Below, one piece after another: positions 8,292-42,768 of a DNA stretch of 64,000 nt. The stretch lies in the IMG/VR virus record IMGVR_UViG_3300028392_002123; one strand, written 5' to 3'. This stretch comes from a virus. Taxonomy: Duplodnaviria; Caudoviricetes. A program made the translations under genes and the position numbers. The first letter of the stretch is position 1; the number at the start of each line of letters is the position of its first letter. The notes beneath the pieces were generated by a model. It had not been told where the DNA came from and did no database searches. It worked only from the letters and a program-made list of their open reading frames with translations.

Positions 8292-8846
8292 TTAATTCCT
8301 TTTAAACAACGAGAGGTAATTGGAAAAATCATTTCCCTGAAACCTTATACTAGCACATATCCTATGGCTATTTCCATTAATGGTAACATTATGTGGTACT
8401 GTTGTTTTTACTAAACAAGGTCCGTCGGACCATGCATAGCTTTCTATTAAATCACAGTCTTTTAAATCAAATCCCACGTATGAGTTTGTTCCTGTACGTG
8501 CCGGCCCGTCCCAACTAGGTAAAGATTTTTCTTTATACCAATTCATTGTCCATGGACTATCACAGCGTATCCAATTTATTGCGGCACGGTCGCCTAAATC
8601 ATATGAACCATCAACATGTATAGTCATATAATAAGGTGCAGGAGGGATAACAAAAATTTGTACCTCTCTCAATTTGAGGCCCATGCCTTTATATGATTTA
8701 ACTAATTCTGGTCTAAGAATAGTTTCGTCTTTGTAATATAGTAATTGTCCGTCAGTCTTGAGTGTTAGTTCGGGTGTTAGATCTGGGATAAAAGGCCACG
8801 CTTGCCATTCGGGTATGGAAATTTTATAATGAAGATCATCGCTCAT
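8292..8846 (-). CDS. 2OG-Fe(II) oxygenase/cupin-like protein
   Basis: HVD...PHNV...RICASIRF. Confidence 0.65.
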
Positions 8847-8847
8847 A

Positions 8848-9357
8848 TTACAAATTGTTATCCATGATAAACTCTTTGACTATGTCAAAGGTATATGGAG
8901 GATTGAAACCCAGAGTAAAAACAACACGCGGTTCATTGAAGTTCAAAACTGCATGTTCAGTTTTTGTGTCAATTAGATAATAATGTCGTGGTTTATATTT
9001 TAACTCTTTGATATGATGCAGGTCTTCGCCTGTTTCATATGGTCGTCCCCAAAACGAATGACTGTCCCAGCCTGTCATTAACATATTAATAGCACAGGTT
9101 CTCACAGTATCTTTGTGAAATTTATAGTGCAGATTAGATCCCATTTTAAGAAAAACAGGCGACGTGGATTTTATATCAAATTCGTTATACAGCGCCGCCA
9201 TGACTGGATCACTGCGTATCAACATTTCTGGTAATACCAGTATGTCGAAACTGTATTGATTAAACCATTTAGCATCAGGCATGTCAATACACCCTGCAAT
9301 TTGATCATATATACTGCACGGAGTCTTAAGTTCGTAAAAGCATTCGTTTATTATCAT
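8848..9357 (-). CDS. 2OG-Fe(II) oxygenase/cupin-like protein
   Basis: HKD...EHAV...RVVFTLGF; TAAATA-N5-ATG. Confidence 0.65.
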   Translation of the reverse strand: MIINECFYELKTPCSIYDQIAGCIDMPDAKWFNQYSFDILVLPEMLIRSDPVMAALYNEFDIKSTSPVFLKMGSNLHYKFHKDTVRTCAINMLMTGWDSHSFWGRPYETGEDLHHIKELKYKPRHYYLIDTKTEHAVLNFNEPRVVFTLGFNPPYTFDIVKEFIMDNNL

Positions 9358-9369
9358 TATAATATTTAC

Positions 9370-9951
9370 CTAGTAAGCATCTTGGTAATCTTCTAGTACA
9401 TACCAGCCTAATTTTTTAAGGTCTGCTCGGATCTCATCCGTGACCACCATTTCCGAAACAAATGCCTGTGCTTCTTTATATCTAACTTGCTGTTCTTCTG
9501 TTAGTGCATTAAATTCTTCAGGAGACAATTCGTCATTATTTTTTATACCACTACAGTACCAATCAATGTAGTCGCCCTTTTCCTGCATGTCAGCAATGAT
9601 GCCACCGGCATAGCGCCAGCTGGCACTCCAAGTCTGGCCAGCCAATCTGGGTATGAATTCATTTTTTTGAAAAGTATTATTGCAAATGGCCGCGTAAAGG
9701 TTTTGTGCATAGACGTCGTTGTCGCGAACTTTTTCCAATATCCACGGAGTACTGCGTAGATCATACTCCATGTTATTTTCTTGCCAAGCGGGATCGGCTT
9801 CCCGTTGTTGTTTATCAATATCCCAACTATCGTAATATTCGGCCATGGCCTTGGTGTCCTCGTCATTTTCCGGAGTCCGGCCATCTTCGGCTCGTCGTTT
9901 TAGGAAGTTTTCTTTTTGAAAAGTATTTCTTTGTGGACTGTTTGACAGCAT
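9370..9951 (-). CDS. Hypothetical phage protein
   Basis: Long ORF in gene-dense minus-strand block; YAQNLYAAICN, YIDWYCSG. Confidence 0.7.
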   Translation of the reverse strand: MLSNSPQRNTFQKENFLKRRAEDGRTPENDEDTKAMAEYYDSWDIDKQQREADPAWQENNMEYDLRSTPWILEKVRDNDVYAQNLYAAICNNTFQKNEFIPRLAGQTWSASWRYAGGIIADMQEKGDYIDWYCSGIKNNDELSPEEFNALTEEQQVRYKEAQAFVSEMVVTDEIRADLKKLGWYVLEDYQDAY

Positions 9952-9957
9952 ATTAGT

Positions 9958-10587
9958 CTATATTATGGGTCGAAATTCTGGTTTAATAACCCCTGTCTGC
10001 AACAGCAAGGGACTTTGAAGTTTACTTGGCAATACTACATAGAATCCTTTGTAGTCTTCTTTGAGCTGATCCAATTTTTCCTGAGTATCGATATAGCGAT
10101 CAATATAAAAGTTAATGCGTTTGACTTTTTTATATATTTGTTCTTGCCAAATCTTAATACCTTCCTTGGTACGTGGGCCCTGTGTTATTGAAAAGAAATA
10201 ATAGATACCTTGGTTGATAAATGGATCAAATGCCAAATAGCCCATGTCATTTTCCCAGATATTATTGCTTGCTGGAGTATACCCCGGAGCGGTGTACACA
10301 AACAATAAACAAAAATATGGAACAACTCTAACAGGTTTGCTCCATAATTTATTCAAACTACTGGTTACAACGAACCTAACGATTTTATCATTGTCGATTT
10401 CCGCCGAAATAAAAAAATTTTTATGCGGATCGGATTCTCTGCTGGTCCACCATTTAATGTACCAATCAAAGGTCAAACTCAATCCTTCGGTGGAATATGA
10501 CTTTGATTTTTCAAATAATATTTGATCGAGACATTGCCTAAAAAGTACAATGTCGTTTTCGTCATCAGGGTTTAATAAACGTATCAT
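9958..10587 (-). CDS. Hypothetical protein
   Basis: 209 aa ORF with AGGA SD, following tRNA-fMet. Confidence 0.65.
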   Translation of the reverse strand: MIRLLNPDDENDIVLFRQCLDQILFEKSKSYSTEGLSLTFDWYIKWWTSRESDPHKNFFISAEIDNDKIVRFVVTSSLNKLWSKPVRVVPYFCLLFVYTAPGYTPASNNIWENDMGYLAFDPFINQGIYYFFSITQGPRTKEGIKIWQEQIYKKVKRINFYIDRYIDTQEKLDQLKEDYKGFYVVLPSKLQSPLLLQTGVIKPEFRPII

Positions 10588-10603
10588 TGCTGTCCTATAT
10601 AAT

Positions 10604-10679
10604 TGGTTGCGGGTGAAGGATTCGAACCTCCGTCCTCCAGGTTATGAGCCTGACAGTCTGACCACTGACGTAACCCGCG
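10604..10679 (-). tRNA. tRNA-fMet (CAT), initiator-type
   Basis: C1:A72 mismatch, anticodon stem TCAGG/CCTGG with CAT, TTCGAAT T-loop, CCA. Confidence 0.88.
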
Positions 10680-10688
10680 GTATGCTAT

Positions 10689-11258
10689 TTATAGTAAGCC
10701 TTCTTGCGTTAATATTTGTACAGTACGATCGCTGAGTGCAATCTCTGTGCGTACATTTAACTCAAGCAATTCGTCTTGCAATTTTTGTTTAGATTTTTTT
10801 ACTAAACTGACCAAGATTTTAAAACCTTTGATATCTTCTTCTTGGAAGATACTGGTAGAAACTGTGTTTTCGAAGCCGTAGATACTGCGACTGTCTTCTT
10901 TACGATTTCTAATTTTTGCCAATTTACCTTCGATGTGTGTGGGATCTTCTCGAACTGCCTTGGCCATGAATGCGGTATAACTTTGGATTTGTTTATCCAA
11001 GTGTGCAATGTCTGCCAAGCGCATGTCAACACCCACTTGATTATTGGCCGCACTAGTGGCTTTGCGAATTTCATAGACCGCAGACACCAAAGTGTCTTTA
11101 CGTGCAAGATCTTCTTTGAATTTCATAACTGCTTTGGCTAGTTCTGGTTCAACAGTTTGAAATTCATTGAGACTGACTTCAGTGACCAAATTAATAGACT
11201 TGATCGCGTCATTGATGCTATTTTGCAGTACAGAAGCTTTACGTAAACTAATGTTCAT
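10689..11258 (-). CDS. Hypothetical coiled-coil protein
   Basis: 189 aa helical ORF with AAGGA SD. Confidence 0.7.
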   Translation of the reverse strand: MNISLRKASVLQNSINDAIKSINLVTEVSLNEFQTVEPELAKAVMKFKEDLARKDTLVSAVYEIRKATSAANNQVGVDMRLADIAHLDKQIQSYTAFMAKAVREDPTHIEGKLAKIRNRKEDSRSIYGFENTVSTSIFQEEDIKGFKILVSLVKKSKQKLQDELLELNVRTEIALSDRTVQILTQEGLL

Positions 11259-11267
11259 TTTTATTCC

Positions 11268-11937: not shown

Positions 11938-12567
11938 TTATTCTAGTCTGCTAAATCCCCATTGACGTTCTTCACACCACCAACAGTGACCGCAGTGGCC
12001 ACTAGTTAGTATAAGATCTTCGCAGGACCTTGTCAAGGGAAATATATCGTCTAATACATTCAATTCCTTATATATACCCGAAATTACTTTTTTATCAACG
12101 TTGATAAAAGGTCTATAATTCCTATTGTTATTCCCTGTGTAAAATGGTTTAATATCATAGGGATTGCGTTCTGATCGAGTACGACTATTATCTGTAAATT
12201 TATCTGTTACTTCTACCGGAGGATTTGCTGTTACCCCTGTGTACAAATAATTTATTTTTCCCGAGTTAAGATCTGCAATACCATGCGTTAACATATTACT
12301 TTCTGTTTGTTCATCGACAAACACAACATGATGATAGACATTATTTCTATTTAACATATCTATACATTTGCCAATTACTTTTAATGCATAATGCGGTGCT
12401 GTTCTACTTTTTGCTTTATTGGCACATGTATAAACATGCACAGCACCTTTTGCATATTTCATTAAAATATACAGCAATATTGAACTGTCGGCTCCTCCGC
12501 TGACACTAACACCGATCGGTCCATCATGAATGTCAATGTTAACATTATTAATTGTCAACGTCTGCAT
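11938..12567 (-). CDS. QueC-like PP-loop ATP pyrophosphatase
   Basis: [10 protein letters not shown]-loop and C-terminal [12 protein letters not shown] Zn motif; start trimmed to MQTLT. Confidence 0.65.
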
Positions 12568-12568
12568 G

Positions 12569-12853
12569 TTATTCTGTTTTATTTGATTCTTCAGCGTCCC
12601 GACGGAACTCATCTTCCATCCACAACATTTTTCGATGCTGATACATTTCTTCGCTGAGTCCGTGCCAGCCGATACACTTGCCTGTTGGGCTACGGCCGCA
12701 ACCACACTTGCCAAATTCTTCTGCGTTTTCTTTTACTCTTACCTGCATAGCCTGTTCCTTATTTTTATTAAAAATTCTGTCCCAATTGGATGCATAAGTT
12801 TCTGCACCAATGCTAAATGGACGAGGTGAGCTACCTTTGCCGCCATCACTCAT
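12569..12853 (-). CDS. CDGSH-like iron-sulfur/zinc finger protein with N-terminal MSDGGKG peptide
   Basis: [15 protein letters not shown] resembles CxCGxS..PxCDGSH; second SD and ATG at MQVR. Confidence 0.55.
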
Positions 12854-13128: not shown

Positions 13129-13896
13129 ATGCAAGACTTATTTGATATACTATACACACCCCTGGACTGTCCGCCAATGCCTAAAATAGATGTGGACAAA
13201 CTGGATCTTTGGCAACAAGATCGAGTCAATAATTTTGACAAGAACAAATCAGCAAGCGCGGCCGAACTTCAGTCCAATGCTCGCACTTGGTTTATGAAAA
13301 AATCTTTTTTTCAAGGAGATCAAAATCAATATCCCTGGGATCTATCTATGTTATATTATAATAAAAATAACAGCAACGTGGGATGGTTAGGCGGATTTGA
13401 TAAAGAGTTCCCCGAACTAGTAGAGTATATTAACTCAGCTTTTGGAATACCAGTGCATGAATTTGGCACAGTATTATTACTGCCTGTTAAAAAATCACAT
13501 ACTGGAATATACTGGCATAGAGATGATGATACATCGGGTCTGCGTATGTACATTGAACACGAAGATCCAGTGAACAATACATTAATAATGCGTAGATCTG
13601 TGACCAGAGATAGATGGCCCTTGCCATGGCAGTATGATATTACTAGGCCGTTAAATGGATTTCAAGAAGAAGATTTAACCTGCAACATTGTCAGTAAAAA
13701 TCAATGTTTCTTCCTGAACAATATTAGAGCATTGCATGCCACAGTGACCAAAGCACCTGAGCGCAGAAGATTCACATTGTTGTTTGGCGACAAGTTAAAT
13801 AGAGTCATGCCAAATAGAATTAATCAACTCACCGAAGATTTAATCAAACGTAGTGCTGAAAAATACAAAGAGCAGGCCATACTATGGCCGGTTTAA
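13129..13896 (+). CDS. 2OG-Fe(II) oxygenase/cupin-like protein (paralogue of 40052)
   Basis: WHRD...LHAT...RRFTLLF; TATAAATA-N5-ATG. Confidence 0.65.
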   Translation: MQDLFDILYTPLDCPPMPKIDVDKLDLWQQDRVNNFDKNKSASAAELQSNARTWFMKKSFFQGDQNQYPWDLSMLYYNKNNSNVGWLGGFDKEFPELVEYINSAFGIPVHEFGTVLLLPVKKSHTGIYWHRDDDTSGLRMYIEHEDPVNNTLIMRRSVTRDRWPLPWQYDITRPLNGFQEEDLTCNIVSKNQCFFLNNIRALHATVTKAPERRRFTLLFGDKLNRVMPNRINQLTEDLIKRSAEKYKEQAILWPV

Positions 13897-14509: not shown

Positions 14510-15313
14510 TTAATTTTTAAACTTGGCTAAATTTAACTTAACCAATAATTCTATTGTTCTTGCCGCTGGATCGAGTTCATACCATTTTCTTCCATAGCGA
14601 TAATTCGCAGGATCATCATGATGATTTCGATGCCAAGCATCTCCGTTATTAATATTCAGCATAACCAGTACTAGGCTGTTACTACCTTTATTATTACCTC
14701 CAACAGGTAATAACCATGCAGGAGTGTTATGACCCCATGCGTTAATGCTATGCATCTTGTTGATGGTCAATCCCAACACAGCAATCCAAAATAACAACAA
14801 TTCTGGACTAATAAAATAAAGCGACAATAACCATACTGCATTTATTACCCAACTATATCTTGCAAACCATGCATGAGTAGGGTCCTTGGCTAGATCGGGC
14901 GCATACTGTATTTTAATGGGAGTAAAATACGTACAAAACTGAATCCACAGCCTAGATTTAAAATAAGGACTATGCGGATCACGTTCGGTGTCAGCATGTC
15001 TATGATGTTGTCTATGCACAGCGGCCCAACCTATGCTGGTGCCAACCATGGTAATTGTGAATAAAAATAATCCTAGAATATTCAGATATTTCTTAGGTAC
15101 CCAGGATCTATGCGACCATGCTCTGTGTGCAAAAATAGTAAGATTAATTCCTAGTGCGTATACAGTAATCAACAGTATTGCAATGGAACTAAAATTAAAA
15201 TTATTTGCAATCCAATATACACTGACTATCAAACTAGTGATGCCCACGGTGCTTAACAACCAAGGTTCAATTTTAACTCTGTCTAAGACCATATTATTCT
15301 TTAATGAATACAT
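14510..15313 (-). CDS. Membrane fatty acid desaturase
   Basis: HRAWSH, HRQHH, HRNHH boxes; RDPHSP. Confidence 0.9.
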   Translation of the reverse strand: MYSLKNNMVLDRVKIEPWLLSTVGITSLIVSVYWIANNFNFSSIAILLITVYALGINLTIFAHRAWSHRSWVPKKYLNILGLFLFTITMVGTSIGWAAVHRQHHRHADTERDPHSPYFKSRLWIQFCTYFTPIKIQYAPDLAKDPTHAWFARYSWVINAVWLLSLYFISPELLLFWIAVLGLTINKMHSINAWGHNTPAWLLPVGGNNKGSNSLVLVMLNINNGDAWHRNHHDDPANYRYGRKWYELDPAARTIELLVKLNLAKFKN

Positions 15314-15741: not shown

Positions 15742-16590
15742 TTAATAATGAATTCCTTCTGTGGGTATACTAGGATCAAATTCGTAATCCTCGGGAAGTT
15801 CAATAACGCTGTTTCTATCTAATAAGTCAATCATTCCTGCACCGGGTATACCTGATATACGTATCTGTCTACGACGACTTGTAACAACAGGCACTCCGTG
15901 ATAAAAATAATCATTGGTTATATAAACGGGATCATCTGCCAATTTATAATTGACCAATTCTTTGCCGTCTAGTGCCCAATACAACGGAACTCCTCCGTTG
16001 GAAATATTAATATTAAGTGTTATAAAACCTTTTGAAAAAACTTTGTTGACACCTGCACTGGACTTTCCATCATAAAGTCCCTTCATATCCCTGTGAATTG
16101 TTGCCATTCCACCAGGATCTAAATGCACACAATGCATCCAAATTATTTTTTCAAAAGGCAATGTATCTTTTATCCATTTAACTATGGCCAAATCTTTAAA
16201 TTCTTCTTTGACATTAAATGTCAAATCAAAACCTTCATTGCGTAAACTAGGCCCTGCGTATTTTCCCATGGTCAATAACAGCGGATCTGTAATTCCTTTT
16301 GCATCTAACTCAACCAAAGAAGCCATCTTCCATGCTCTTCGATTTTTTGTAATTGTTTTATATGTATTAAAGTTTCCAGGTTGTTGCCAACAATCTACTT
16401 CATCATAGGCTGAATCCGGAGCCATTTGCCAAATACTATTTAATTTCTTAGTTGCAGTCAGTCCATCACACGAATTACATATAGTAACTCCTATAGGAGC
16501 AATATATCGGTCGTACTCATCGATGAATGTATCTTGCTGATTTCCAAAGTCTACATTCAATTTGGCAAATGCAAAATTTTTAAAATACAT
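15742..16590 (-). CDS. 2OG-Fe(II) oxygenase/cupin-like protein
   Basis: HRD...YHGV...RRQIRISG. Confidence 0.65.
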   Translation of the reverse strand: MYFKNFAFAKLNVDFGNQQDTFIDEYDRYIAPIGVTICNSCDGLTATKKLNSIWQMAPDSAYDEVDCWQQPGNFNTYKTITKNRRAWKMASLVELDAKGITDPLLLTMGKYAGPSLRNEGFDLTFNVKEEFKDLAIVKWIKDTLPFEKIIWMHCVHLDPGGMATIHRDMKGLYDGKSSAGVNKVFSKGFITLNINISNGGVPLYWALDGKELVNYKLADDPVYITNDYFYHGVPVVTSRRRQIRISGIPGAGMIDLLDRNSVIELPEDYEFDPSIPTEGIHY

Positions 16591-17476: not shown

Positions 17477-18037
17477 TCAAATTAATCTTTGATTGACCAC
17501 ATCCCAATTGATGATGCGCCAAATATTTTCTAGATACTTTTTCTTGTCAGCTTGATAGTCTAGGGCCCAGGCGTGTTCCCACCAATCAATTAACAGTACA
17601 ATTCTATCTGTGTTGCCTGTGATGCTGTGGTTGGCAATGGTCTGTATACGACCTGCGCGATCTAAAAAGATCCAACCACTGCCCTGTATGGCCATGGCCT
17701 TGGCACTGACTTGATCTTTAAATTCATCAAAGCTTTTAAAATTACGAGTGATAAAGTCCTTGGAATTTCCAGTAGGTTGATTGCCGGACTTGGGTGCTTG
17801 TAGCTGTGGAAAGAATATATTGTGCAAGTCTGCACCATTCTTATTGAACTTGGCGTCACCTTCGCCTGAGTTATAACGATCTACATAGGCCTTGGCCAAG
17901 GTGCCGTAGTGATAGTCTAGGGTAGCTTCGCTCATCACGGGTGCCAAGTCTGTTCTTTTATAGGGCAGTTTGTTAAGGCTAAGAGTCAACTTAGTGCCTT
18001 CAACCACCATGATATATCTTCTAATATCGTATTGCAT
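17477..18037 (-). CDS. Fe/Mn superoxide dismutase
   Basis: TLDYHYG, HNIFF, QGSGW, DWWEHAW. Confidence 0.92.
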   Translation of the reverse strand: MQYDIRRYIMVVEGTKLTLSLNKLPYKRTDLAPVMSEATLDYHYGTLAKAYVDRYNSGEGDAKFNKNGADLHNIFFPQLQAPKSGNQPTGNSKDFITRNFKSFDEFKDQVSAKAMAIQGSGWIFLDRAGRIQTIANHSITGNTDRIVLLIDWWEHAWALDYQADKKKYLENIWRIINWDVVNQRLI

Positions 18038-18059: not shown

Positions 18060-18494
18060 ATGAGATACTGGGCAGAATATGTCAAAGCCGGTTGGGAATT
18101 AGTAGTATTAGCACAAGGTACTAACAAAGTCTATTTGGATCAAGACTTGGAAGCATTTCTAGTTCATGTTGTTGCTAGAACATTTGAACGCACAGATCTA
18201 TGGACAGAGCCTGTGGCAATTAAACTAATGACTGCACAGCAGTTACCACAGTATCAAAGACAGATAGCACTGAGAAACATAGGTGAGGAATGTCTGTTCA
18301 TTGACGCTTGGCAGATCAAGCAACCACGTTGGCCAGCACCTAAATACTTTGAAGACATGGGCAAGATTGCCTTTGGCTATGCCAGCGTAGCCACTGACCC
18401 TGCAGATGATTTACTGGATGCTGCCGCGGAAAATTTCACCATGGTAAGTCGTGTGCTTAGATATACCAGAGACTTGTATCTACACAATGTCTAA
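18060..18494 (+). CDS. Hypothetical protein
   Basis: 144 aa ORF from the late promoter. Confidence 0.7.
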   Translation: MRYWAEYVKAGWELVVLAQGTNKVYLDQDLEAFLVHVVARTFERTDLWTEPVAIKLMTAQQLPQYQRQIALRNIGEECLFIDAWQIKQPRWPAPKYFEDMGKIAFGYASVATDPADDLLDAAAENFTMVSRVLRYTRDLYLHNV

Positions 18495-19229
18495 GTAATC
18501 TGATTTTTTATACTGGCTGATCAAGGCCTGCTGTTTGTATTTAGATACACTACGTTCCAGCAAATCATGATATTTTTTAATGTCGATGCCGCATTCATCA
18601 AATATTAAAACTAGTTTTCTAAATTCAGGATTGTACAAACTGCCATGTACTGTTCTCAAATTATTCCAAACAAAAGAATTTGTTTCTTCTAGTCTAGGTA
18701 TAAAAAATCTGTCATTCATTTTGCTGTCTGGTAATTTTTCCGCTGTATAAAGAGTCTGCTGGGGATTGTTGTCAAACAGCATTATTCTAAAACTACTGGG
18801 ATAATCAGTGAATTCAGTTTGATCTCTGTGCGGCCTAACTGGCCGATTACTGGACCACAGCTTTATATGTGGTACCACAGTAAAAGGAAATTCTTCCATG
18901 ACACGTTCCATGAAAAAAGGAAATAGAGTTAAAAACTCTTGTTTTGGATTTGTGGTCCAGTGATCAAATTTATTTGTATTCCCCGTGGGAAACACATCTA
19001 CTACGTCGTAGTTTGTTACACCTATCACAGGACTGGCAATATCGGCCTTGATTTTTTTATTTGGCACAGCATGGTTCGCAAACCATTGATTAATTTCTGG
19101 ATAGTTGTACACCGGCACGGCCAAGGGAACATAAGAATATTCTCCAAAAATTTCCAACTCTGCCAGTCTAGGATATTTTTCCAATTGACGGCTGCGGTTG
19201 ATGGTAAACTGAGATCGTTCTGTGATCAA
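18480..19229 (-). CDS. 2OG-Fe(II) oxygenase/cupin-like protein
   Basis: HRD...VHGS...RKLVLIFD; start uncertain (TTG). Confidence 0.62.
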   Translation of the reverse strand: MITERSQFTINRSRQLEKYPRLAELEIFGEYSYVPLAVPVYNYPEINQWFANHAVPNKKIKADIASPVIGVTNYDVVDVFPTGNTNKFDHWTTNPKQEFLTLFPFFMERVMEEFPFTVVPHIKLWSSNRPVRPHRDQTEFTDYPSSFRIMLFDNNPQQTLYTAEKLPDSKMNDRFFIPRLEETNSFVWNNLRTVHGSLYNPEFRKLVLIFDECGIDIKKYHDLLERSVSKYKQQALISQYKKSDYLDIV

Positions 19230-29947: not shown

Positions 29948-30168
29948 AATTTGAAGAAAGAATTCCAAGAAGCCTAAGTAAAGTAATTACTTGGAGAATT
30001 ATACTATCTATACAGTATTTCGTTATTGGCTATGTAACCATGGGAACCATAGCCAGTGCCCTGGGATTAGTGGGCATTACCACTGTGGTCAACAGTTGTA
30101 TATATTATCTACACGAACGTGCTTGGAATAAATCCAGCTGGGGCAAAAAGGTAGAAGTAGAAGCATGA
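29944..30168 (+). CDS. DUF2061-like small membrane protein
   Basis: RSLSKVITWR...YYLHERAW. Confidence 0.7.
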   Translation: MKFEERIPRSLSKVITWRIILSIQYFVIGYVTMGTIASALGLVGITTVVNSCIYYLHERAWNKSSWGKKVEVEA

Positions 30169-32822: not shown

Positions 32823-33731
32823 ATGAACATGGGAAATATTAAAGGCTACTACGAAGATGATCCTTCAAGGGTATTTAGAACCGGTATGATGGATCTACTT
32901 ACTTTTGAAGTACAAGGATGCACGAGGCCGGCACAGACACTCAAAGAAGAATTGATGCTAGCGGCCAGTGATATATACAATACTGTACCTGATATACACA
33001 TAGCACTATCCGGTGGTTGGGAAAGTAACGTATGTCTGCATACTTTTATGGAAGCAGGATATAAACCCCGGGTAATGATTCTGGAGTTTCCCCGGGGACT
33101 CAATGACTTTGACACAGATCCTGCCAAAGAAGCTTGCCGTAGATATGGCATTACTCCTACCATCGTACCTGTTGACATGTCCTTTCTAGACTTTATCAAA
33201 AACGCTGTAGTACCTGTGGTAGAAAAATATCAAACATATACTTTTTTTCAAAGTTTGTTTGCTTATTACTTGGAAAAAACAAAAATCAACTGCTTGCTAG
33301 TAGATAAAGTAGATCTGCGCCGCGATCTAAATCCTAATGGTCAGTGGAGTTTTATACGCAGTGAAGTAGCTACATGGACTGATCGATTCAACACACTCAA
33401 CGAAAATAAAGTATTGATGAATTTTTATTGTCACAGTCCCGAAGCCATGCTGGCCTATTTAGAACTGCCCACTATAGTCGACTTGATGAATCATCCTAAA
33501 AATGGTAAGCTAAGTCTACAAAGTCTCAAACATAAGATCTATCTAGAAGGCGGATACAATATTCCATTGTTTACACGAACTGTCAGCACTGATAAGATCA
33601 TTGGCGTAACAGCGGCCTGCGAAGAAAAGATTAAAAAAGACATTGGTTGGAAAACTAGGATAGGCTACGTAGAGTATCCTAAAATTGTTCAAGCATTAAA
33701 AAGTGAAGGTGGAAAATGGCAATACATTTAA
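32823..33731 (+). CDS. PP-loop (adenine nucleotide alpha-hydrolase) superfamily protein
   Basis: IALSGGWES variant loop; TAAATA-N5-ATG. Confidence 0.6.
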   Translation: MNMGNIKGYYEDDPSRVFRTGMMDLLTFEVQGCTRPAQTLKEELMLAASDIYNTVPDIHIALSGGWESNVCLHTFMEAGYKPRVMILEFPRGLNDFDTDPAKEACRRYGITPTIVPVDMSFLDFIKNAVVPVVEKYQTYTFFQSLFAYYLEKTKINCLLVDKVDLRRDLNPNGQWSFIRSEVATWTDRFNTLNENKVLMNFYCHSPEAMLAYLELPTIVDLMNHPKNGKLSLQSLKHKIYLEGGYNIPLFTRTVSTDKIIGVTAACEEKIKKDIGWKTRIGYVEYPKIVQALKSEGGKWQYI

Positions 33732-34327
33732 GAAGATTGGTAACAGAAGACTTGGCCGTTATAGAATCTATGGCCAAAGAAAAATTAGTAATGACCAATA
33801 CTAAAAGTTTTGTATTTGAAGAAAACGGTGTTGCTGTGTTCAAATACTTTGTCTTACCAGATTCAATCTATGGCGCAGAAAAAATGCGCTGTTATGGTTA
33901 CTTTGAAGATGATAAATTATTGGCTGTATTGGGTTTGAGAACATTTGATCAATTCCCCAGTTGGATCCTTAGCTTTATTGTCACTAGTAACGACTGTAAA
34001 AATAGCATTGACTGTATTAAATCACTGCTAGAGTACACCATAGAAGAACAGGAAAAACTGGGATTCTATCAATGGTTTACAGTGAGTAAATTGGAAAAGT
34101 TTGAGGTTTGGCAAAAACTATTTAAAAAGGCCAGACAGAAATACCATCACTATGTCTATGCAAGAATCCCAGCTAATACCATGCCTAAATGGTTGAGTCA
34201 CTTGAGCTTTAGCCGCGGAAAATTGTTTCCTTACGATATAAATATCAGCATGTACATGGCTAAGAGTTTGTGTACTTCGGACGGCGACGACTCGGATGTC
34301 GACGAACGTGACATAGACTTTTTATGA
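33716..34327 (+). CDS. Hypothetical protein, GNAT-like
   Basis: YGYFEDDKLLAVLG, WILSFIV. Confidence 0.4.
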   Translation: MAIHLRRLVTEDLAVIESMAKEKLVMTNTKSFVFEENGVAVFKYFVLPDSIYGAEKMRCYGYFEDDKLLAVLGLRTFDQFPSWILSFIVTSNDCKNSIDCIKSLLEYTIEEQEKLGFYQWFTVSKLEKFEVWQKLFKKARQKYHHYVYARIPANTMPKWLSHLSFSRGKLFPYDINISMYMAKSLCTSDGDDSDVDERDIDFL

Positions 34328-35184
34328 ACGAACAAGAACCAATTAAACTAAACAATTTTTTATATTTTGTGCTGTATCCAGCACACTTAGCTGCCTTATT
34401 AGGTATTTTTGTATTTCCATTCTACTTTGATTTTGGTATTAAACATGTTGTATGTTTACTGCTAGGATGGGTACTATTAGCAGGCATAGGTAGTGCTATT
34501 ACCTTACACAGAGTTGTCAGTCACAGAGCATTAGAACCGCGCCGTGGTTTTAAACCTGTTATGCTGTGGCTGGCCAGTTTGTGTTTACAGGGAAGTCCTT
34601 TGGGTTGGGCCAGTATACATAGAGGCGCACATCATAGACATGCTGACACAGACAGAGATCCGCATACTCCGCAAAAAGGTTTTTGGTACAGCTATCATGG
34701 TTGGCTCTATGACTGGGCAAATTATTATAATTTTAGATTCAGTGTGGACTTGATCAGAGATCCCATGCACATGTGGTTCGCACAGCACTACACTAAGATC
34801 ATTGCTGTAACTTATATAATCGTGGGATTAATCGACTGGCAAGTTCTTTTATTCATGTTTATTATTCCTGCTGTTTACAGCCTGCATCAAGAAAGCTGTG
34901 TAAACTATTTCTGTCACTTGCCTAATAAAGGTTATAGGAACTTTGAAACCAAAGATGACAGCAACAATAGATCAGTTATGGCCTTGTTAGTTTGGGGTCA
35001 AGCTTGGCACAACAATCATCATGCCAAGGCCAGTGCCTACGACTTTGGCACCACTGTTAGTGGTCGTATTGACGAATTTGATCCCACATTATTGTTAGTA
35101 CCTTTACTAGCAACCAAAGAAAGTAGACAACGTATATTTAAAGCGAGAGAAGATGCAACTACAATTCCGAACACTAATAATTAA
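34324..35184 (+). CDS. Membrane fatty acid desaturase
   Basis: LHRVVSH, HRGAHH, RDPHTP, WHNNHH. Confidence 0.9.
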   Translation: MNEQEPIKLNNFLYFVLYPAHLAALLGIFVFPFYFDFGIKHVVCLLLGWVLLAGIGSAITLHRVVSHRALEPRRGFKPVMLWLASLCLQGSPLGWASIHRGAHHRHADTDRDPHTPQKGFWYSYHGWLYDWANYYNFRFSVDLIRDPMHMWFAQHYTKIIAVTYIIVGLIDWQVLLFMFIIPAVYSLHQESCVNYFCHLPNKGYRNFETKDDSNNRSVMALLVWGQAWHNNHHAKASAYDFGTTVSGRIDEFDPTLLLVPLLATKESRQRIFKAREDATTIPNTNN

Positions 35185-35701
35185 TCCTGATAATTGGATT
35201 ATTGGTGAGCATACTAACAAAGATGCTATGATATGGGCGATATCAGATCGTCCTTGGTATAATCTTAGAACTTATACTATTAAAGATGAATTTTCTTTGC
35301 CCGCACAGTTAAAAACCAATAGCTGGACGCAGGTAGAAATTAATAGGGAAAACACTTGCCCACAGGATGTGCTGAGAGAAATTAAATTAATCGAAGCTAG
35401 AATTAAATTCTGTGCGGAGTTATACTATCGCTTACAAATAGCACAGGAAAATCTAGGACTCAGCATGACTAATTTTACCTTGGTGCAATTACATGAATAT
35501 CTCGTCAGCAAAGGACTAGTTGAAGGAGAAGCCAATCCAGATGCCAGCATACAGTACGAAAACAAACTGAGATTATTACAAGATTTAAACAACATCAAAA
35601 ATCAAGTTGTTGCTTCTTTAATGTCTGCGGCAACCATTGAAGATTTTGCTCAAACAAGAGCACTCATGGAACGCCTATTCTTCACTAACATATTACTATG
35701 A
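35153..35701 (+). CDS. Hypothetical helical partner of PP-loop enzyme
   Basis: Coupled to the next gene; C-terminal SAATIEDF resembles 54095. Confidence 0.6.
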   Translation: MQLQFRTLIINPDNWIIGEHTNKDAMIWAISDRPWYNLRTYTIKDEFSLPAQLKTNSWTQVEINRENTCPQDVLREIKLIEARIKFCAELYYRLQIAQENLGLSMTNFTLVQLHEYLVSKGLVEGEANPDASIQYENKLRLLQDLNNIKNQVVASLMSAATIEDFAQTRALMERLFFTNILL

Positions 35702-36735
35702 ATTTAATTTACTATCATCCGATTGCATTACCCGTAGAACAAAAAGGCATATTTCATGCCTGTGTTAATCCACTAATTTCTGTCATGGATAGAACTGATA
35801 ATCGTTGGCCCGCAAAGCTAGACTATGTCAATTTATTCCCCATGCCCGCGGTATCGGCGGATCCAACACCTAACTTCATGGACACCAGCATAGCCAGGAT
35901 AAAAGAATTAACCGAGCATGATCAACATGTTAATCTACTGTGGAGCGGTGGCATTGACAGCACGTTTATCATGACCATGATGATTGACTTGGGCATTGCT
36001 GATCAACTGTTCAATGAAGGTAGATTGACCATTGGTTTAAATCAGGACAGTATCAAAGAGAATCCAGTGTTCTATGAAAAGTTTATCAAAGCACGTTATA
36101 TGAAATGTGTGGTGCAGGCCAATCATATTTTAATTAATCCCAAACCCGATCAAGTTATTATCACAGGCGAAATGGCCGACAACTTGGTAGGTAGTTTAAC
36201 TATGAAAAGTTGTGTAGATTTTTACAACGACTTCAGTGTTGTTCATAAACCATATGCCCAGGCCATTGATTGGATGACACGCAATTTAAAAAAGCCTGAA
36301 TACAAGGATAATCTGCAAAAGTTTTTAGAAAGTGCTATTGCTAAAAGTCCAGTTGAATTGACCACATGCCATGATCTACTTTGGTATTTGAACTTCAATT
36401 ATAAATGGCAAGCAGTTAACTTTAGAATTGTCAGCCATTGTCGGGATCAAAACACTGGAAATTTATTGATTAAAAACTTAAAACATTTCTTTAACACTGA
36501 CAGTTTTCAACAATGGAGTCTCAAAGAAGGACACTATTTTGAAGGCAGTAATTGGGGAGATTATAAAAAGGTCATGAAGAAACAAATCTATCAAGTTACC
36601 AGCGACTTAGAATATTTTAAGAACAAGACCAAACATCCTAGTTTGCCTGCATTGCTACGCTATAAAGATACCTTTGACTTTATCTACGAAGACAATGGCA
36701 GTTACGTGTTTACTAAAAAACAGATTCAATCATGA
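35698..36735 (+). CDS. Asparagine synthase-like PP-loop enzyme
   Basis: LLWSGGIDST, ITGEMADNL, WYLNFNYKWQ, FQQWS, YKKVMK. Confidence 0.7.
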   Translation: MNLIYYHPIALPVEQKGIFHACVNPLISVMDRTDNRWPAKLDYVNLFPMPAVSADPTPNFMDTSIARIKELTEHDQHVNLLWSGGIDSTFIMTMMIDLGIADQLFNEGRLTIGLNQDSIKENPVFYEKFIKARYMKCVVQANHILINPKPDQVIITGEMADNLVGSLTMKSCVDFYNDFSVVHKPYAQAIDWMTRNLKKPEYKDNLQKFLESAIAKSPVELTTCHDLLWYLNFNYKWQAVNFRIVSHCRDQNTGNLLIKNLKHFFNTDSFQQWSLKEGHYFEGSNWGDYKKVMKKQIYQVTSDLEYFKNKTKHPSLPALLRYKDTFDFIYEDNGSYVFTKKQIQS

Positions 36736-37643
36736 ACTTTGGCATAGAAGAAACCACAGGCAAGTTCTACGTAGAACATGTTAGCTGTAGTCGTCAACCT
36801 GGCACACTTCGCGAAGAAAGCGATCGTCGTGCCAGAGAGATTTATTCTAACAATAATAAAGTAATGCTGTGCCTCAGCAGTGGCCTAGACAGTCAAATAG
36901 CATTACACAGTTTTCTCAGTCAGGGCATACCTGTTGAATGTGCCTTTTTACGCTTGGGAGGATTCAACGACAATGAATATGAAAACTTACAAGTATTGGA
37001 AAAGAAATACGGATTTAAAAGTCATGTCATTGAACTAGATCCCAATGCTCGCAGAGAAGAATTAGAAGCACTGAGTCCAGTACTGGACGCACATTTAAAT
37101 CACTGCATACAACATCTATTCGTCAAAGAGCTACCCCGAGACTATGACATTGTACAAGTACTGCATGATCCATGGTTGGTAACTAGAAAAGATACTGCAC
37201 AACACTATGTTTATCAAAGTTATTATGATCCAGAGATAGCTCGCTATCGTGCATTGTCTGCCATACCCGATCGCACAGGTCGTATAGAAATGTTTGGCAA
37301 CAGCAGTGAATATTTTGTCAGCAGTATCAATGACGAATTATTTCACTACTTTCTTAAGAGTTGGGTTTACTATGATGGCAATGGTTTCAAGCTCTACGAC
37401 CTCAAAGTCAATGACGTTCTGCGCTATGAATACTATATCAAACCCATGCTGTATGCCAAGCACTGGGGCGATGAACTAATTTACTTTCCCAAGTTCTCGG
37501 GCTATGAAAACATTGATTGGCTCTACAAAAGTGTACGTAAAATACAAAAAGAAAAACAATGCTTTATGCTCTGGCAGGATTTGATCAAACACTATCTTGC
37601 TTGTACGGGTACTAGTAAAAGATTCTACGAAGTTAAATTTTAG
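36732..37643 (+). CDS. PP-loop superfamily protein (paralogue of 46835)
   Basis: LCLSSGLDSQ, YYIKPM, YFPK. Confidence 0.62.
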   Translation: MNFGIEETTGKFYVEHVSCSRQPGTLREESDRRAREIYSNNNKVMLCLSSGLDSQIALHSFLSQGIPVECAFLRLGGFNDNEYENLQVLEKKYGFKSHVIELDPNARREELEALSPVLDAHLNHCIQHLFVKELPRDYDIVQVLHDPWLVTRKDTAQHYVYQSYYDPEIARYRALSAIPDRTGRIEMFGNSSEYFVSSINDELFHYFLKSWVYYDGNGFKLYDLKVNDVLRYEYYIKPMLYAKHWGDELIYFPKFSGYENIDWLYKSVRKIQKEKQCFMLWQDLIKHYLACTGTSKRFYEVKF

Positions 37644-37947: not shown

Positions 37948-38151
37948 TTATTCTTTGATAATTTTTATCAATTTAATTAGATCCCTGCGAATAGCATATT
38001 CTGTAGAACCAACACGAATATGCAAACAACCCCGATTTTTTCTTAATACTGTTAACAGTCTATCGGGCACAATGCCCAAAGACTTTAGTCTTTCATGATC
38101 AACTGAAATGATTCGACATTGTTGATTTGGTTTTAAATCATCTATGTTCAT
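37948..38151 (-). CDS. feoA: FeoA-family SH3-like protein
   Basis: RLKSLGI, IRVGSTEYAIRR. Confidence 0.72.
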   Translation of the reverse strand: MNIDDLKPNQQCRIISVDHERLKSLGIVPDRLLTVLRKNRGCLHIRVGSTEYAIRRDLIKLIKIIKE

Positions 38152-38946: not shown

Positions 38947-38951
38947 ATTGT

Positions 38952-39043: not shown

Positions 39044-39694
39044 TTAAATGTTTGACTGTGTCAACTGATATTTTGCAATTAGATTATCAATTAATTCTTT
39101 TTTTGGTTCAGTGTGAAATTGATACCAGATGTGTAATCTTCTATGACCTTTGGGAACATGGATATCATGCTGTATCGCTGTTTGTATCAGCACCGGAGTA
39201 CTGGTAATAGGTTGATGTACAGTCAATGATTCTGTGTCGTTTCTAAATTTCCAAAGACATTCCGGAGTTGTTTCCACAGCAATGTGTACACGAAAGGGAG
39301 TGTGATTATCCACGTGCCAGTTAAGATTTACATTAGCATGATCTTTGTATAATAAACTTGATCTTGCTCTAGGCGGCCCTATTTCTAAGTATTCTGAAAA
39401 TAACTTTCCCAGCTGTTGAATATAAGATCCCTGCAATGATCTGGGCCAATGCACTAAATCTCTGTCATCTTCTCCTGTGGCCAGTATATGTCTACTATGA
39501 GGATTAAATTTACGTTGTCCACTGTATTTTGTAAAACTGAAATTGTCGTTGTTAAGATCTTCTAGTTGACAAGTTAGACCGCAGTCTATGCCAATCTGTG
39601 GTTTAACTATGTTATAAATCTCTTGTCGAACTTTATCAACATCAACATTAATATCTACTAAGGGGATATAAAATTGATCTAATAGTGTATGCAT
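39044..39694 (-). CDS. 2OG-Fe(II) oxygenase (Asp/Asn hydroxylase-like)
   Basis: WHVD, RVHIAVET, QHDI, RRLHIWY; TATAAATA-N5-ATG. Confidence 0.68.
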   Translation of the reverse strand: MHTLLDQFYIPLVDINVDVDKVRQEIYNIVKPQIGIDCGLTCQLEDLNNDNFSFTKYSGQRKFNPHSRHILATGEDDRDLVHWPRSLQGSYIQQLGKLFSEYLEIGPPRARSSLLYKDHANVNLNWHVDNHTPFRVHIAVETTPECLWKFRNDTESLTVHQPITSTPVLIQTAIQHDIHVPKGHRRLHIWYQFHTEPKKELIDNLIAKYQLTQSNI

Positions 39695-40051: not shown

Positions 40052-40771
40052 ATGTTAACAGATGTAATTTATACTCCAGTGGATCCACTGGAACCTATGC
40101 CAGAAGTTGATCCTAAAAAATTTCACCAATGGATCAAAGACAATTATCCTAAAACAGCAGTCTATAGGGACATAATAATTAATAAAGGACGAACTGCATC
40201 AGGCAGGGTAGAAAATTATCCATGGGATTTAACAGTGGGTTATATGGCCAGTATGGGGTGGGTGGGCACCTTTAAAAATGAATGGCCTGAGCTAGCAGAC
40301 TGGATTCCACGAGCATGGGGCATTGATATCACAGATATTGGTGTTATTATATTTTTACCTACAAGAGAACAACAATTAGGCACAGCATTTTGGCATAATG
40401 ATGCAGATCTGCATGGCCTTAGATTTTATATAGAATTTGAAGATCCAGAAAACAATACGTTGTTAATGAGAAGAACTAAAATCAAACACGAAGTTAAACC
40501 TATATATGATTATCCATTGGATACAGAAAAATATTTACAAAAAGAAATTTTAACTTGTAATATATCAAAAAGGAATCAGGTATTCTTTTTAAACAACACA
40601 TTGTCTGCTCATGCTGTACATACCAATGTACCAGGCAAGGTACGCATAGCATGTTTCATATCAATTAATACATCTAGGAATAAAAAAGTTTCTGACATTG
40701 TCTGTCCTATAATAGAACGTAGTGCAGAAAAGTATAAAGATTATTCTTTATATTGGAAACCAGAAGAGTAA
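40052..40771 (+). CDS. 2OG-Fe(II) oxygenase/cupin-like protein (paralogue of 13129)
   Basis: WHND...AHAV...RIAC; YPWDL and EDP.NNTL.MRR shared; TAAATA-N5-ATG. Confidence 0.65.
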   Translation: MLTDVIYTPVDPLEPMPEVDPKKFHQWIKDNYPKTAVYRDIIINKGRTASGRVENYPWDLTVGYMASMGWVGTFKNEWPELADWIPRAWGIDITDIGVIIFLPTREQQLGTAFWHNDADLHGLRFYIEFEDPENNTLLMRRTKIKHEVKPIYDYPLDTEKYLQKEILTCNISKRNQVFFLNNTLSAHAVHTNVPGKVRIACFISINTSRNKKVSDIVCPIIERSAEKYKDYSLYWKPEE

Positions 40772-41386: not shown

Positions 41387-41408
41387 CTTGCCCTCCTTTT
41401 AAAATTAT

Positions 41409-41437: not shown

Positions 41438-41441
41438 TTAT

Positions 41442-41517
41442 TGGTACCAAGAGTCGGAATCGAACCGACCACACACGGATTTTCAATCCGTTGCTCTACC
41501 TACTGAGCTATCTTGGC
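41442..41517 (-). tRNA. tRNA-Phe (GAA)
   Basis: Cloverleaf; ACGGA-TT GAA AA-TCCGT; CCA. Confidence 0.94.
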
Positions 41518-41526
41518 ATTATTGAA

Positions 41527-41738: not shown

Positions 41739-41741
41739 ACT

Positions 41742-41831
41742 TGGCGGAAGCGGTGAGATTCGAACTCACGGCCCACTTTCGTGAACGACGGTTTTCAAGA
41801 CCGTTGCCATAGACCACTCGGCCACACTTCC
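41742..41831 (-). tRNA. tRNA-Ser (TGA)
   Basis: Class II cloverleaf; ACGGT-CT TGA AA-ACCGT; CCA. Confidence 0.93.
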
Positions 41832-41836
41832 TGATT

Positions 41837-41910
41837 TGGCGTCCCGCCAGGGACTCGAACCCCGACCAACGGTTTTGGAGACCGTTATGCTGCCATTACA
41901 CCAGCGAGAC
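41837..41910 (-). tRNA. tRNA-Trp (CCA)
   Basis: Cloverleaf; ACGGT-CT CCA AA-ACCGT; CCA. Confidence 0.92.
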
Positions 41911-41916
41911 ATTAAT

Positions 41917-42008
41917 TGGTACCCCCGGCGGGAATCGAACCCACATGAACCAATTATCTGTTGCTTACGGGATATAAATCCGCCGTTTTACCGTTAAACT
42001 ACAGGGGC
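41917..42008 (-). tRNA. Atypical tRNA, apparent anticodon TAT (Ile-like), long variable region
   Basis: Acceptor GCCCCTG/CGGGGGT, D arm GTTT/AAAC, T arm GTGGG-TTCGATT-CCCGC, CCA; irregular anticodon arm GCGGATTTATATCCCGT. Confidence 0.7.
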
Positions 42009-42013
42009 ATATT

Positions 42014-42090
42014 TGGTGCCGCAACCTGGACTCGAACCAGGGACCTTTCGCTTATCAAGCGAATGCTCTAACCAACTGAGCTATTGAGGC
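42014..42090 (-). tRNA. tRNA-Ile (GAT)
   Basis: Cloverleaf; TTCGC-TT GAT AA-GCGAA; CCA. Confidence 0.92.
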
Positions 42091-42099
42091 AATATAAAC

Positions 42100-42175
42100 T
42101 GGGGTGAAGGATGGGACTCGAACCCACAACAACTGGAATCACAATCCAGGGCTCTACCATTGAGCTACCGACACC
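42100..42175 (-). tRNA. tRNA-His (GTG)
   Basis: G-1/C73; CTGGA-TT GTG AT-TCCAG; two acceptor mismatches; CCA. Confidence 0.88.
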
Positions 42176-42192
42176 AAAAGATAAATAATTTT

Positions 42193-42768
42193 ATGTACTG
42201 TTTCCACTTAAACTTAGATCTAGCACCTTTTAAATTTAAATTTAACTATAAAGATTACTTGCCTCCATTTGGAAAAACAAGTAATGTAGTTAAATTTAAT
42301 CTCGTCGACATAAATCCAGAACTTGTAGAATTATTAGCCGAGCGCAATATAAAAATTGGCTGGGCTGAAATGTTTATTAAACATCCTCATATGACAGTAA
42401 ATGAACAAATACACATCGATGAATTTCGAGGAGACTTTGTTAAATTAAATTGGGTCTGGGGAGGAACCGGAAGCACTATGAGATGGTTCCGAGAACTTGA
42501 TCCTGCAAAAAAATTAACACCATCAAGCAATCAAATCAACAGTCCTTATCTAGGATTCAGTATCAATGATGTTGTTCTAGAACATGAAGAAGCACTTAGT
42601 GGACCGTGTATAATACAAGTTGGTGTTCCACATAATGTTGTCATGGGCACTGATATGAGATGGGCATTGAGTTTTGTATTATTGGATATCACTGGTAATA
42701 CCAGTGCTCGACGAAGATTATCAATGCCACAAGCTTTGGAAAACCTAAGCAATCTACGCAAAGCATAA
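42193..42768 (+). CDS. 2OG-Fe(II) oxygenase/cupin-like protein
   Basis: HID...PHNV...RWALSFVL; start trimmed to TAAATA-N5-ATG at 42193. Confidence 0.65.
   Translation: MYCFHLNLDLAPFKFKFNYKDYLPPFGKTSNVVKFNLVDINPELVELLAERNIKIGWAEMFIKHPHMTVNEQIHIDEFRGDFVKLNWVWGGTGSTMRWFRELDPAKKLTPSSNQINSPYLGFSINDVVLEHEEALSGPCIIQVGVPHNVVMGTDMRWALSFVLLDITGNTSARRRLSMPQALENLSNLRKA

Follow-up and report, generated by a model that had tools for sequence, protein, structure and literature searches.

A 64,000-nucleotide stretch of a freshwater T4-like jumbo phage (IMG/VR record IMGVR_UViG_3300028392_002123), referred to here at its full length as the window, probably encodes between 8.3 and 42.8 kb about 20 small proteins of the double-stranded beta-helix (DSBH) Fe(II)/2-oxoglutarate (2OG) oxygenase superfamily, which would fall into at least five families. 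We count 19 intact-looking oxygenase genes and one copy that lacks the catalytic triad, and name each gene below by its first coordinate. The families are so diverged that ordinary profile libraries miss most of their members: Pfam, NCBIfam and PHROGs gave no match for 16 of the 18 open reading frames (ORFs) that the original prediction had listed, next to a TauD-family gene, as oxygenases of this kind. With 38-41% G+C, the window carries 29 tRNA genes and short ORFs densely placed on both strands, and its own proteins are also found, in a protein collection, on a contig of 340,548 bp. The oxygenases sit far from the structural genes. The cargo around them comprises three FA_desaturase-like proteins, two B12-binding radical-SAM proteins, two nitroreductases, a GNAT protein, an S-adenosylmethionine (AdoMet) decarboxylase, QueC- and QueD-like proteins, a superoxide dismutase (SOD), an IscA-like protein, a FeoA-domain protein and PP-loop proteins.

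The 18 ORFs had been recognised by an HxD motif, a distal His and, about 10 residues later, an Arg starting a hydrophobic beta strand. All of them do carry the motif, and in 17 a basic residue (Arg or Arg/Lys) opening a hydrophobic stretch stands at +9 to +13; in the remaining one, 27440, the spacing is +18 (H231...R249). What the count missed is a paralogue at 30721-31338 that has lost the triad. The ATG starts assumed at 13129, 19628 and 42193 are a plausible choice over the longest ORFs, since the longer TTG ORFs 19463 and 42160 overlap tRNA genes, and the three proposed paralogue pairs are real (BLASTP E 9e-49 for 13129/40052, 1e-40 for 20718/21328 and 1e-24 for 29321/30165). By itself, however, the motif is weak evidence. 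Written as a regular expression, it matches 6-10% of the window ORFs after shuffling and also 5-9 of the 71 ORFs that are not candidates. Because the bare motif is this common by chance, the claim rests on conservation and fold.

Judged in this way, the proposal that these residues form the 2-His-1-carboxylate triad and the 2OG-binding Arg of DSBH enzymes holds up to different degrees. Fold prediction and fold search support it for two families that we call groups A and B (10 ORFs), Pfam for 19628, 29321 and the TauD gene 31328, and profile links together with invariant residues for 15742. For 8848, 23448, 27440 and 39044 there are profile matches in register, but these are weaker.

Groups A and B

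All-versus-all BLASTP and profile searches place seven ORFs, whose mutual identity is 18-34%, in group A. On the minus strand these are 8292-8846 (H77-x-D79, H152 and R162, included in the group A alignment, A2), 26194-26892 (A2 profile E 1.4e-35) and 26889-27437, the member chosen for AlphaFold2 and VIA-align. On the plus strand, 20718-21341 scores best against the A2 profile (E 1.5e-88) and has orthologues of 49-55% identity in relatives L001, L005, L009 and L013; it is followed by its tandem paralogue 21328-21972, which shares its last 4 nt with the start of the radical-SAM gene 21969. Also on the plus strand, 25647-26207 (E 4.6e-33) stands directly after the radical-SAM gene 24189 and has its own ATAAATA box, and 42193-42768 (E 7e-35) lies in the tRNA array, between tRNA-His and tRNA-Met and behind an ATAAATA box.

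A profile of the group A paralogues, run against 5.8 billion proteins, found 43 proteins, all of them unnamed. Invariant throughout the resulting alignment of 49 sequences are F, H, D, N, W, H and R, with a nearly invariant Ser four positions past the Arg. The AlphaFold2 model of 26889 built from this alignment (predicted local distance difference test, pLDDT, 90.9; predicted template modelling score, pTM, 0.88) is mostly beta. In it H72 and D74 lie in strand 71-74 and H145 in strand 144-148, while R154 opens strand 154-163; these modelled positions are those expected of a DSBH oxygenase. When the model was compared by VIA-align with 48,161 chains, the top 50 matches were almost only 2OG oxygenases and their fold relatives (e.g. 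vaccinia C16), with Z of 7-9.2, and the matches include hydroxylases, ALKBH, PHD2, P4H, KanJ and AspH. In the AlphaFold database, group A finds entries named 'Fe2OG dioxygenase' and 'prolyl 4-hydroxylase', with template modelling (TM) scores up to 0.62. A sequence search of the PDB with the group A profile returned nothing relevant.

Group A shares with the PHD/P4H-type enzymes and with small bacterial Fe2OG proteins a compact core of ~180 residues and a His-to-Arg spacing of +9, which is also the spacing in PHD2. It differs from the P4H types in having no Pfam P4H or 2OG-FeII_Oxy match and in its family-specific invariant residues N85 and W97 (numbering of 26889). As part of the overall explanation, and with the same good but incomplete confidence, we regard group A as a PHD/P4H-like family that has 8848, 23448 and 15742 as distant relatives. 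Judging from the model, it appears equidistant from protein-, nucleic-acid- and small-molecule-modifying enzymes.

Group B, delimited likewise by BLASTP and profile searches, consists of 13129-13896 (+), 18480-19229 (-) and 40052-40771 (+). The first is a paralogue of the third, matches the group B profile (A4) with E 7e-77 and has an ATAAATA box 5 nt before its ATG. The second represents a divergent subfamily (H134-R-D136; A4 profile E 4e-62) in which the distal His is invariant, and the third is the modelled member (H115-x-D117, H187, R198). The search for group B gave 53 homologues, again all unnamed. Across these 53 sequences the distal His is invariant, two Asn are conserved and an Arg or Lys stands at +11 (position 198) in all. 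HxD is likewise present in every sequence, but its column depends on the alignment: in the MAFFT alignment (A4) it lies 8 columns past a conserved Trp in 17 of the 53 and directly after that Trp in the rest, while an alignment of three sequences restores a single register by means of a 5-residue insert. The choice of register affects where the metal site is located.

The AlphaFold2 model of 40052 (pLDDT 94.5, pTM 0.90), in which position 198 opens strand 198-205, matches proline 3-hydroxylase (1e5r) with a VIA-align Z of 11.5 over 167 residues and proline cis-4-hydroxylase (4p7x) with a Z of 10.1, and nearly all of its top 50 matches are 2OG oxygenases. Names returned from the AlphaFold database include aspartyl/asparaginyl/proline hydroxylase domains. 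The HxD...H...R order on the DSBH core is the same as in 1e5r and 4p7x, with 167-171 residues aligned; identity is 8-10%, however, and group B has conserved N-terminal helices of its own and a C-terminal helix with RSAEKYK. On the strength of the model, we would describe group B as proline-hydroxylase-like and nearest to the free-amino-acid hydroxylases.

No member of either group has a match in Pfam (E up to 1), NCBIfam or PHROG, and none of the 96 metagenomic homologues of the two groups carries a precomputed Pfam domain. Structure prediction gave a DSBH-type fold for both and a non-DSBH fold for neither. We thus assign groups A and B to the superfamily by their predicted fold, outside any curated family. 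Profile-profile comparison among group A, group B and the AspH-like set described below stays at noise level, so that the case for a common origin rests on fold and not on sequence. With this work, three families that have no curated model are now aligned (A, B and that of 15742), two of them, A and B, with confident models.

The AspH-like set, TauD and the remaining candidates

Iterated hidden Markov model searches merged 19628, 29321 and 30165 into an AspH-like set. Two of these ORFs are recognised by the Pfam family Asp_Arg_Hydrox (PF05118, curated cut-off 22.6 bits): 19628-20272 (+) with E 4e-12 and 46.7 bits, its H, D, R and H being invariant in 20 sequences, and 29321-29947 (+) with 25.8 bits and with H102, D104, H154 and R164 invariant in 16 sequences. 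The paralogue of the latter, 30165-30749 (+), has H93, D95, H147 and R157 invariant in 17 sequences. Individually, 30165, 27440, 39044 and 30721 all fall below the PF05118 cut-off, and 30165 and 30721 join the set through profile searches. Of 20 AspH-like sequences, all have H, D and H, and 19 have the Arg. In all AspH-like copies HxD is followed, 8-12 residues on, by a conserved Arg (often as R-x-H), a feature that contacts 2OG in AspH. Compared with the AspH/LpxO/OlsC family, the proteins of the window are much shorter and have no tetratricopeptide repeat or membrane domain.

The gene 31328-32230 (+) is of the TauD/TfdA family, as had been predicted. It scores 35.2 bits (E 1.7e-8) against a curated Pfam cut-off of 27 bits (PF02668), covers profile positions 21-265 of 267 and has orthologues of ~65% identity. 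Between 30165 and TauD lies the triad-less AspH-like paralogue, 30721-31338 (+), which aligns to the AspH-like family profile with an hhalign probability of 92% (E 6.6e-7, 139 columns). Its family of seven members conserves no His. Since the gene is kept in six relatives and appears to evolve under purifying selection, with a ratio of nonsynonymous to synonymous substitution rates (dN/dS) of about 0.1, its product is probably a non-catalytic partner and not the remnant of a decaying gene.

For the ORFs that belong to none of these sets we used an empirical null, in which all 90 window ORFs, with available orthologues, were profiled against four deep profiles by hhalign. Above noise, the top non-self matches were candidates or 30721 in every case except one, 35153 against group A, which covered 26 columns. 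The clearest of the remaining candidates is 15742-16590 (-; H166-x-D168, H231, R240), which represents a separate family with 39 homologues among 1.84 billion representatives. In the 29 members that were aligned, R117, H166, D168, D227, H231 and R240 are invariant, and a Pfam scan of these members yielded single stray matches only. With its catalytic residues in register, this family aligns to group A member families with up to 72% probability and to group B with 23%; conversely, the twelve best non-self matches to the profile of the 15742 family are all candidates.

Two further ORFs are probable distant relatives of group A. Against the group A profile, 23448 (44%, E 2.4e-4, 135 columns) and then 8848 (32%, E 5e-4, 153 columns) lead the non-members, and the rest reach 3% or less. 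The gene 23448-24158 (-; H104-x-D106, H205, R215), located between the two radical-SAM genes, gives probabilities of 44-56% (E 1e-4 to 2.4e-4, ~135 columns). Its HxD, N-containing strand, WW, H and R line up with those of group A; no other non-member among the 90 ORFs scores as high, and in relatives it is retained at 72-82% identity. The gene 8848-9357 (-; H81-x-D83, H135, R144) has no Pfam, PHROG or NCBIfam match. It belongs to a family of three sequences that places HxD, N, H and R in register, and it outranks all non-candidate ORFs against group A only when this three-sequence profile is used; its Arg varies among its three orthologues.

The last two ORFs may belong to the AspH-like set. 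When single sequences were run against the AspH-like profile, the first non-members were 27440 (39.6%) and 39044 (11.8%); when family profiles were used, 30721 came first (92%). The probable member 27440-28219 (-; H165-x-D167, R173, H175, H231, R249), which has a long N-terminal extension and stands behind an ATAAATA box, has no library match. Its single sequence is the top non-member of the 90 ORFs (39.6%, E 3e-4, 70 columns), while its family profile matches the AspH-like catalytic region more weakly, at 6%. A possible AspH-like orphan, 39044-39694 (-; H127-x-D129, R136, H138, H176/179, R184-185), lies between tRNA-Glu and tRNA-Arg, also behind an ATAAATA box. The sole homologue found for it is a 98% identical copy, and its match to the AspH-like profile (12%, E 2.5e-3, 73 columns in register) ranks second among non-members in the single-sequence run, making it the weakest candidate of all.

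Could the motif in some of these four ORFs be a coincidence, so that 8848, 23448, 27440 or 39044 are not active 2OG oxygenases? We think this somewhat unlikely. It is true that the motif arises by chance at the frequency given above, that the hhalign probabilities are 12-56%, and that none of the four has a Pfam, NCBIfam, PHROG or PDB sequence match; PDB searches with the profiles of 23448, 27440 and 15742, and with 39044 as a single sequence, found nothing relevant. The triad-less 30721 shows, moreover, that dead copies exist in the window. Yet in the profile alignments of all four the HxD, the His and the Arg each meet their counterpart. Against the profile of a verified family, three of the four rank near the top of the non-members, 8848 only with its family profile, and the triad residues of 8848, 23448 and 27440 are kept in all their available orthologues.

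Comparison with known arrays and possible roles

Multi-copy 2OG-Fe(II) oxygenases are among the commonest and least understood cargo of aquatic T4-like phages. In cyanophage Syn9, ten dioxygenases drawn from at least five families stand in tandem beside two tryptophan halogenases, an arrangement that was read as tailoring of secondary metabolites or peptides (Iyer, Abhiman, de Souza and Aravind 2010, PMC2938197). Of 16 cyanomyoviruses, 14 had one to five 2OG-Fe(II) genes each (Sullivan et al. 2010, PMC3037559), and S-SZBM1 has nine (PMC9146016). In the pelagiphages of HTVC023P type, eight non-orthologous kinds of 2OG-Fe(II) oxygenase occur across the group, often beside a ferrochelatase (Wittmers et al. 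2022, PMC9599517). In the literature on these aquatic-phage oxygenases we found no assigned substrate.

The array described here is a larger case, drawn from other families, of the dioxygenase arrays described in marine cyanophages. Like the gp43-gp54 array of Syn9, it consists of numerous short DSBH oxygenase genes that belong to several families and are only distantly related to one another, and like the arrays of that type it sits in an accessory, tRNA-rich part of a T4-like aquatic phage genome with other tailoring enzymes adjoining. The differences are that the window comes from a freshwater jumbo phage, that its ~20 copies, the largest set found, compare with 9-10 in the published cases, and that its partners are B12 radical-SAM, PP-loop, desaturase and nitroreductase proteins in place of the tryptophan halogenases of Syn9. 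When Syn9 gp40-gp61 were compared with four profiles from the window, the best hmmsearch E was 0.006 and the best hhalign probability 13%. As far as profile methods can see, the two arrays would thus be analogous and not orthologous. The HTVC023P-type pelagiphages likewise have several non-orthologous 2OG-Fe(II) oxygenases close together beside an iron-related helper, which is ferrochelatase in their case and IscA-like, FeoA and SOD proteins in the window. However, those phages are podoviruses whose eight families are spread across a group, whereas the window holds ~20 genes in one genome. Because most copies in the window are invisible to Pfam, PHROGs and NCBIfam, surveys that depend on such libraries probably undercount badly.

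In each active copy, by analogy with the superfamily, HxD...H would ligate Fe(II), and the Arg that starts the last core strand would anchor 2OG by its C5 carboxylate. Decarboxylation of 2OG with O2 would then give an Fe(IV)-oxo species by which a C-H bond is hydroxylated or otherwise oxidised. As for what is oxidised, we tentatively favour a role as regiospecific tailoring hydroxylases that take part, late in infection, in one multi-step pathway or a few, with small molecules, peptides or lipids as substrates, in line with the proposal made for the cyanophage arrays. The radical-SAM, PP-loop, GNAT, nitroreductase and desaturase neighbours, together with ATP-grasp enzymes in relatives, lead us to prefer such tailoring over the hydroxylation of virion proteins or tRNA.

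Several observations count against this account, both as to fold and as to role. Foldseek comparison of group A with the PDB yielded no more than weak cupin/DSBH matches, the best of them (E 7.6e-4, TM ~0.4) being YjgK, a cupin that does not use 2OG, and Z values of 8-9 in VIA-align are middling. The spatial clustering of the four catalytic residues is deduced from strand positions in the model. The assignment of 8848, 23448, 27440 and 39044 depends on the low-probability profile matches discussed above. Enzyme activity, metal binding and substrates are all predicted. Concerning the role, we found no scaffold gene or precursor in the window, so that a pathway can be argued by analogy only, and the eight copies outside the island at 19.6-32.2 kb lie singly among tRNA genes, unlike the genes of one pathway.

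An alternative that we consider unlikely, and that was the main idea of the original prediction, is that the copies are protein hydroxylases that each act on a different protein of the virion or host, by prolyl, asparaginyl, lysyl or ribosomal-protein hydroxylation. Group A resembles PHD2, P4H, OGFOD1 and NO66-type enzymes about as well as it resembles small-molecule enzymes, PF05118 includes the protein hydroxylase AspH, and the late-promoter-like boxes described below would time expression to virion assembly. However, the best matches of group B are hydroxylases of free amino acids, the genes lie among metabolic-type enzymes at a distance from the structural genes, and the VAEG linker that targets proteins to the head is present in none of the window ORFs.

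At the other extreme, the ~20 oxygenases, the two radical-SAM proteins, six PP-loop proteins, the GNAT protein, the nitroreductases and the three desaturase-like proteins might together form one iron-provisioned, late oxidative factory for a single complex product. We rate this, too, as improbable. If it were true, the product could be, for example, a heavily hydroxylated and C-methylated peptide or lipid, made without a scaffold synthase of the phage's own, and the phage would be re-tailoring a host molecule at a scale not known for any virus.

It is rather less probable still that the substrates are specifically membrane or envelope lipids, whose acyl chains or other moieties the oxygenases would hydroxylate, desaturate and methylate jointly with the desaturase-like and B12 radical-SAM enzymes. 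PF05118 also takes in LpxO and OlsC, which hydroxylate lipid A and ornithine lipids, three FA_desaturase paralogues are present in the window and more in relatives, and the best NCBIfam match of both radical-SAM genes, although sub-threshold, is 'lipid biosynthesis B12-binding/radical SAM protein'. These NCBIfam scores are far under the cut-offs (81 versus 360 bits), however, and families of P-methylases and of enzymes for ribosomally synthesised and post-translationally modified peptides (RiPPs) score nearly as well. In addition, no lipid-specific partner was identified, and no membrane anchor was seen on the oxygenases, though no dedicated search for one was made.

Modification or repair of nucleic acids in the manner of AlkB, TET or JBP, on phage tRNAs or modified DNA, has a low probability in our view. 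Eight oxygenase copies are interspersed among the 29 tRNA genes of the window, ALKBH and TET structures are among the fold matches (Z 7-8.8), and phage T-dioxygenases have been published (PMC13229309). Nucleic-acid enzymes are never top-ranked, however, and none of the candidates has a Pfam 2OG-FeII_Oxy_2/AlkB or TET-JBP match at E up to 1. Since unrelated cargo is known to gather in the tRNA regions of T4-like phages (PMC3037559), the adjacency of oxygenase and tRNA genes may mean nothing.

Inheritance, neighbouring genes and expression

The same gene order recurs in L001, L005, L009, L013 and L014. It runs from an AspH-like gene through AdoMet decarboxylase, group A, radical SAM, the orthologue of 23448, the second radical SAM and further group A genes to the orthologue of 27440, the AspH-like pair, the triad-less copy and TauD. 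One relative's record of 235 kb has eight group A and four PF05118 matches. Identity to the window is 75-86% for the radical-SAM genes, 72-82% for 23448, 66-74% for 27440, ~71% for 29321, ~65% for TauD and 49-56% for group A, which at the protein level evolves ~3 times faster than its neighbours. The paralogues within the window are 20-35% identical. The oxygenase set thus appears to be old and inherited, with paralogues that would be ancient and not the result of recent bursts. As for its distribution, a search of IMG/VR found only one relative, and a scan of one JGI metagenome found one further locus. The island, a radical-SAM gene, one group A member and one group B member were used as queries in megablast and tblastn searches of 50,697 phage records, without a match, and cluster look-ups returned only 'hypothetical protein' names.

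Comparisons of the window with its relatives are saturated for dN/dS, and gene-wide values therefore come from relative-to-relative pairs with dS below 1: they are 0.09-0.22 for group A and 0.03-0.11 for neighbouring genes. Selection is therefore purifying throughout and looser in group A. Two loci stand out. The orthologues of 25647 and 26194 in the five relatives form two or three deep alleles, 44-55% identical between types and 79-95% within them, while the genes flanking them are mostly 74-97% identical among relatives. This looks like replacement of a two-gene cassette, and some diversification at single group A loci may have taken place. The original prediction had suggested, as one explanation for the many copies, diversifying selection against a host barrier. 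An arms race of this kind, with copies diversifying under positive selection or serving as decoys, is scarcely probable: although identity among orthologues is 49-56% for group A and 65-86% for neighbours, and the deep alleles (~47-53%) stand amid those well-conserved flanks, the low gene-wide dN/dS, the invariant catalytic residues, the one-to-one syntenic orthologues and the age of the paralogues all argue against it.

The two radical-SAM genes, 21969-23453 and 24189-25637, both on the plus strand and flanked by oxygenase genes, encode paralogues of 48% identity with Pfam Radical_SAM and B12-binding domains. In NCBIfam they have sub-threshold matches only, to lipid, P-methyl and RiPP C-methyltransferase families. 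Other neighbours deal with iron or oxygen: an A-type Fe-S carrier (IscA-like; 7969-8289, -; Pfam Fe-S_biosyn E 1.3e-20) adjoins 8292, an Fe/Mn SOD is encoded at 17477-18037 (-; Sod_Fe_C E 3.8e-25, and Sod_Fe_N), and a 67-residue FeoA-domain protein for ferrous iron handling at 37948-38151 (-; FeoA E 2e-11). The presence of these helpers among the oxygenases parallels the ferrochelatase partner in pelagiphages. The pairing with radical-SAM genes and the nearby iron-handling genes offer an experimental handle on the array.

The window contains 22 copies of the heptamer ATAAATA, 15 of which have an ATG 3-7 nt downstream, and 12 of those ATGs open ORFs of 144-482 residues. In these 12 long ORFs the heptamer stands 5-7 nt before the ATG, which leaves no room for a Shine-Dalgarno sequence. 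The starts concerned are 13129, 18060, 19628, 24189, 25647, 28267 and 42193 on the plus strand and 18037, 24158, 28219, 39694 and 48688 on the minus strand. Seven of the 12 ORFs are oxygenase candidates, and the others include radical-SAM 24189, nitroreductase 28267 and SOD. We take the heptamer to resemble the late promoter of T4, and it looks like a promoter of that type giving leaderless or near-leaderless mRNA. It occurs in divergent pairs at 18037/18060, 24158/24189 and 28219/28267. Leftward from 28219 follow the oxygenases 27440, 26889 and 26194, one of which abuts and one overlaps the next; rightward from 28267 follow the nitroreductase, 29321, a DUF2061 membrane protein, 30165, 30721, TauD and more. 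This layout fits late, co-ordinated expression, with the timing suggested by the resemblance to the T4 promoter. The DUF2061 protein, of 74 residues (29944-30168, +; Pfam E 6.5e-13), is wedged between 29321 and 30165.

Two further sets of paralogues were seen in the window. Families resembling PP-loop ATPases are encoded at 32823-33731, 36732-37643, 45628-46788 and 46835-47773 and at 35698-36735 and 52974-54098, with SGG-x-DS or SG-x-DS motifs. These six have no Pfam match, and a QueC-like gene at 11938-12714 brings the PP-loop-type genes in the window to seven. The FA-desaturase-like (di-iron) paralogues lie at 578-1342 (-), 14510-15313 (-) and 34324-35184 (+). In relative L002, at 1854-10011, five desaturase-like genes stand in a row beside a group B oxygenase, a Rieske protein and an ATP-grasp enzyme.

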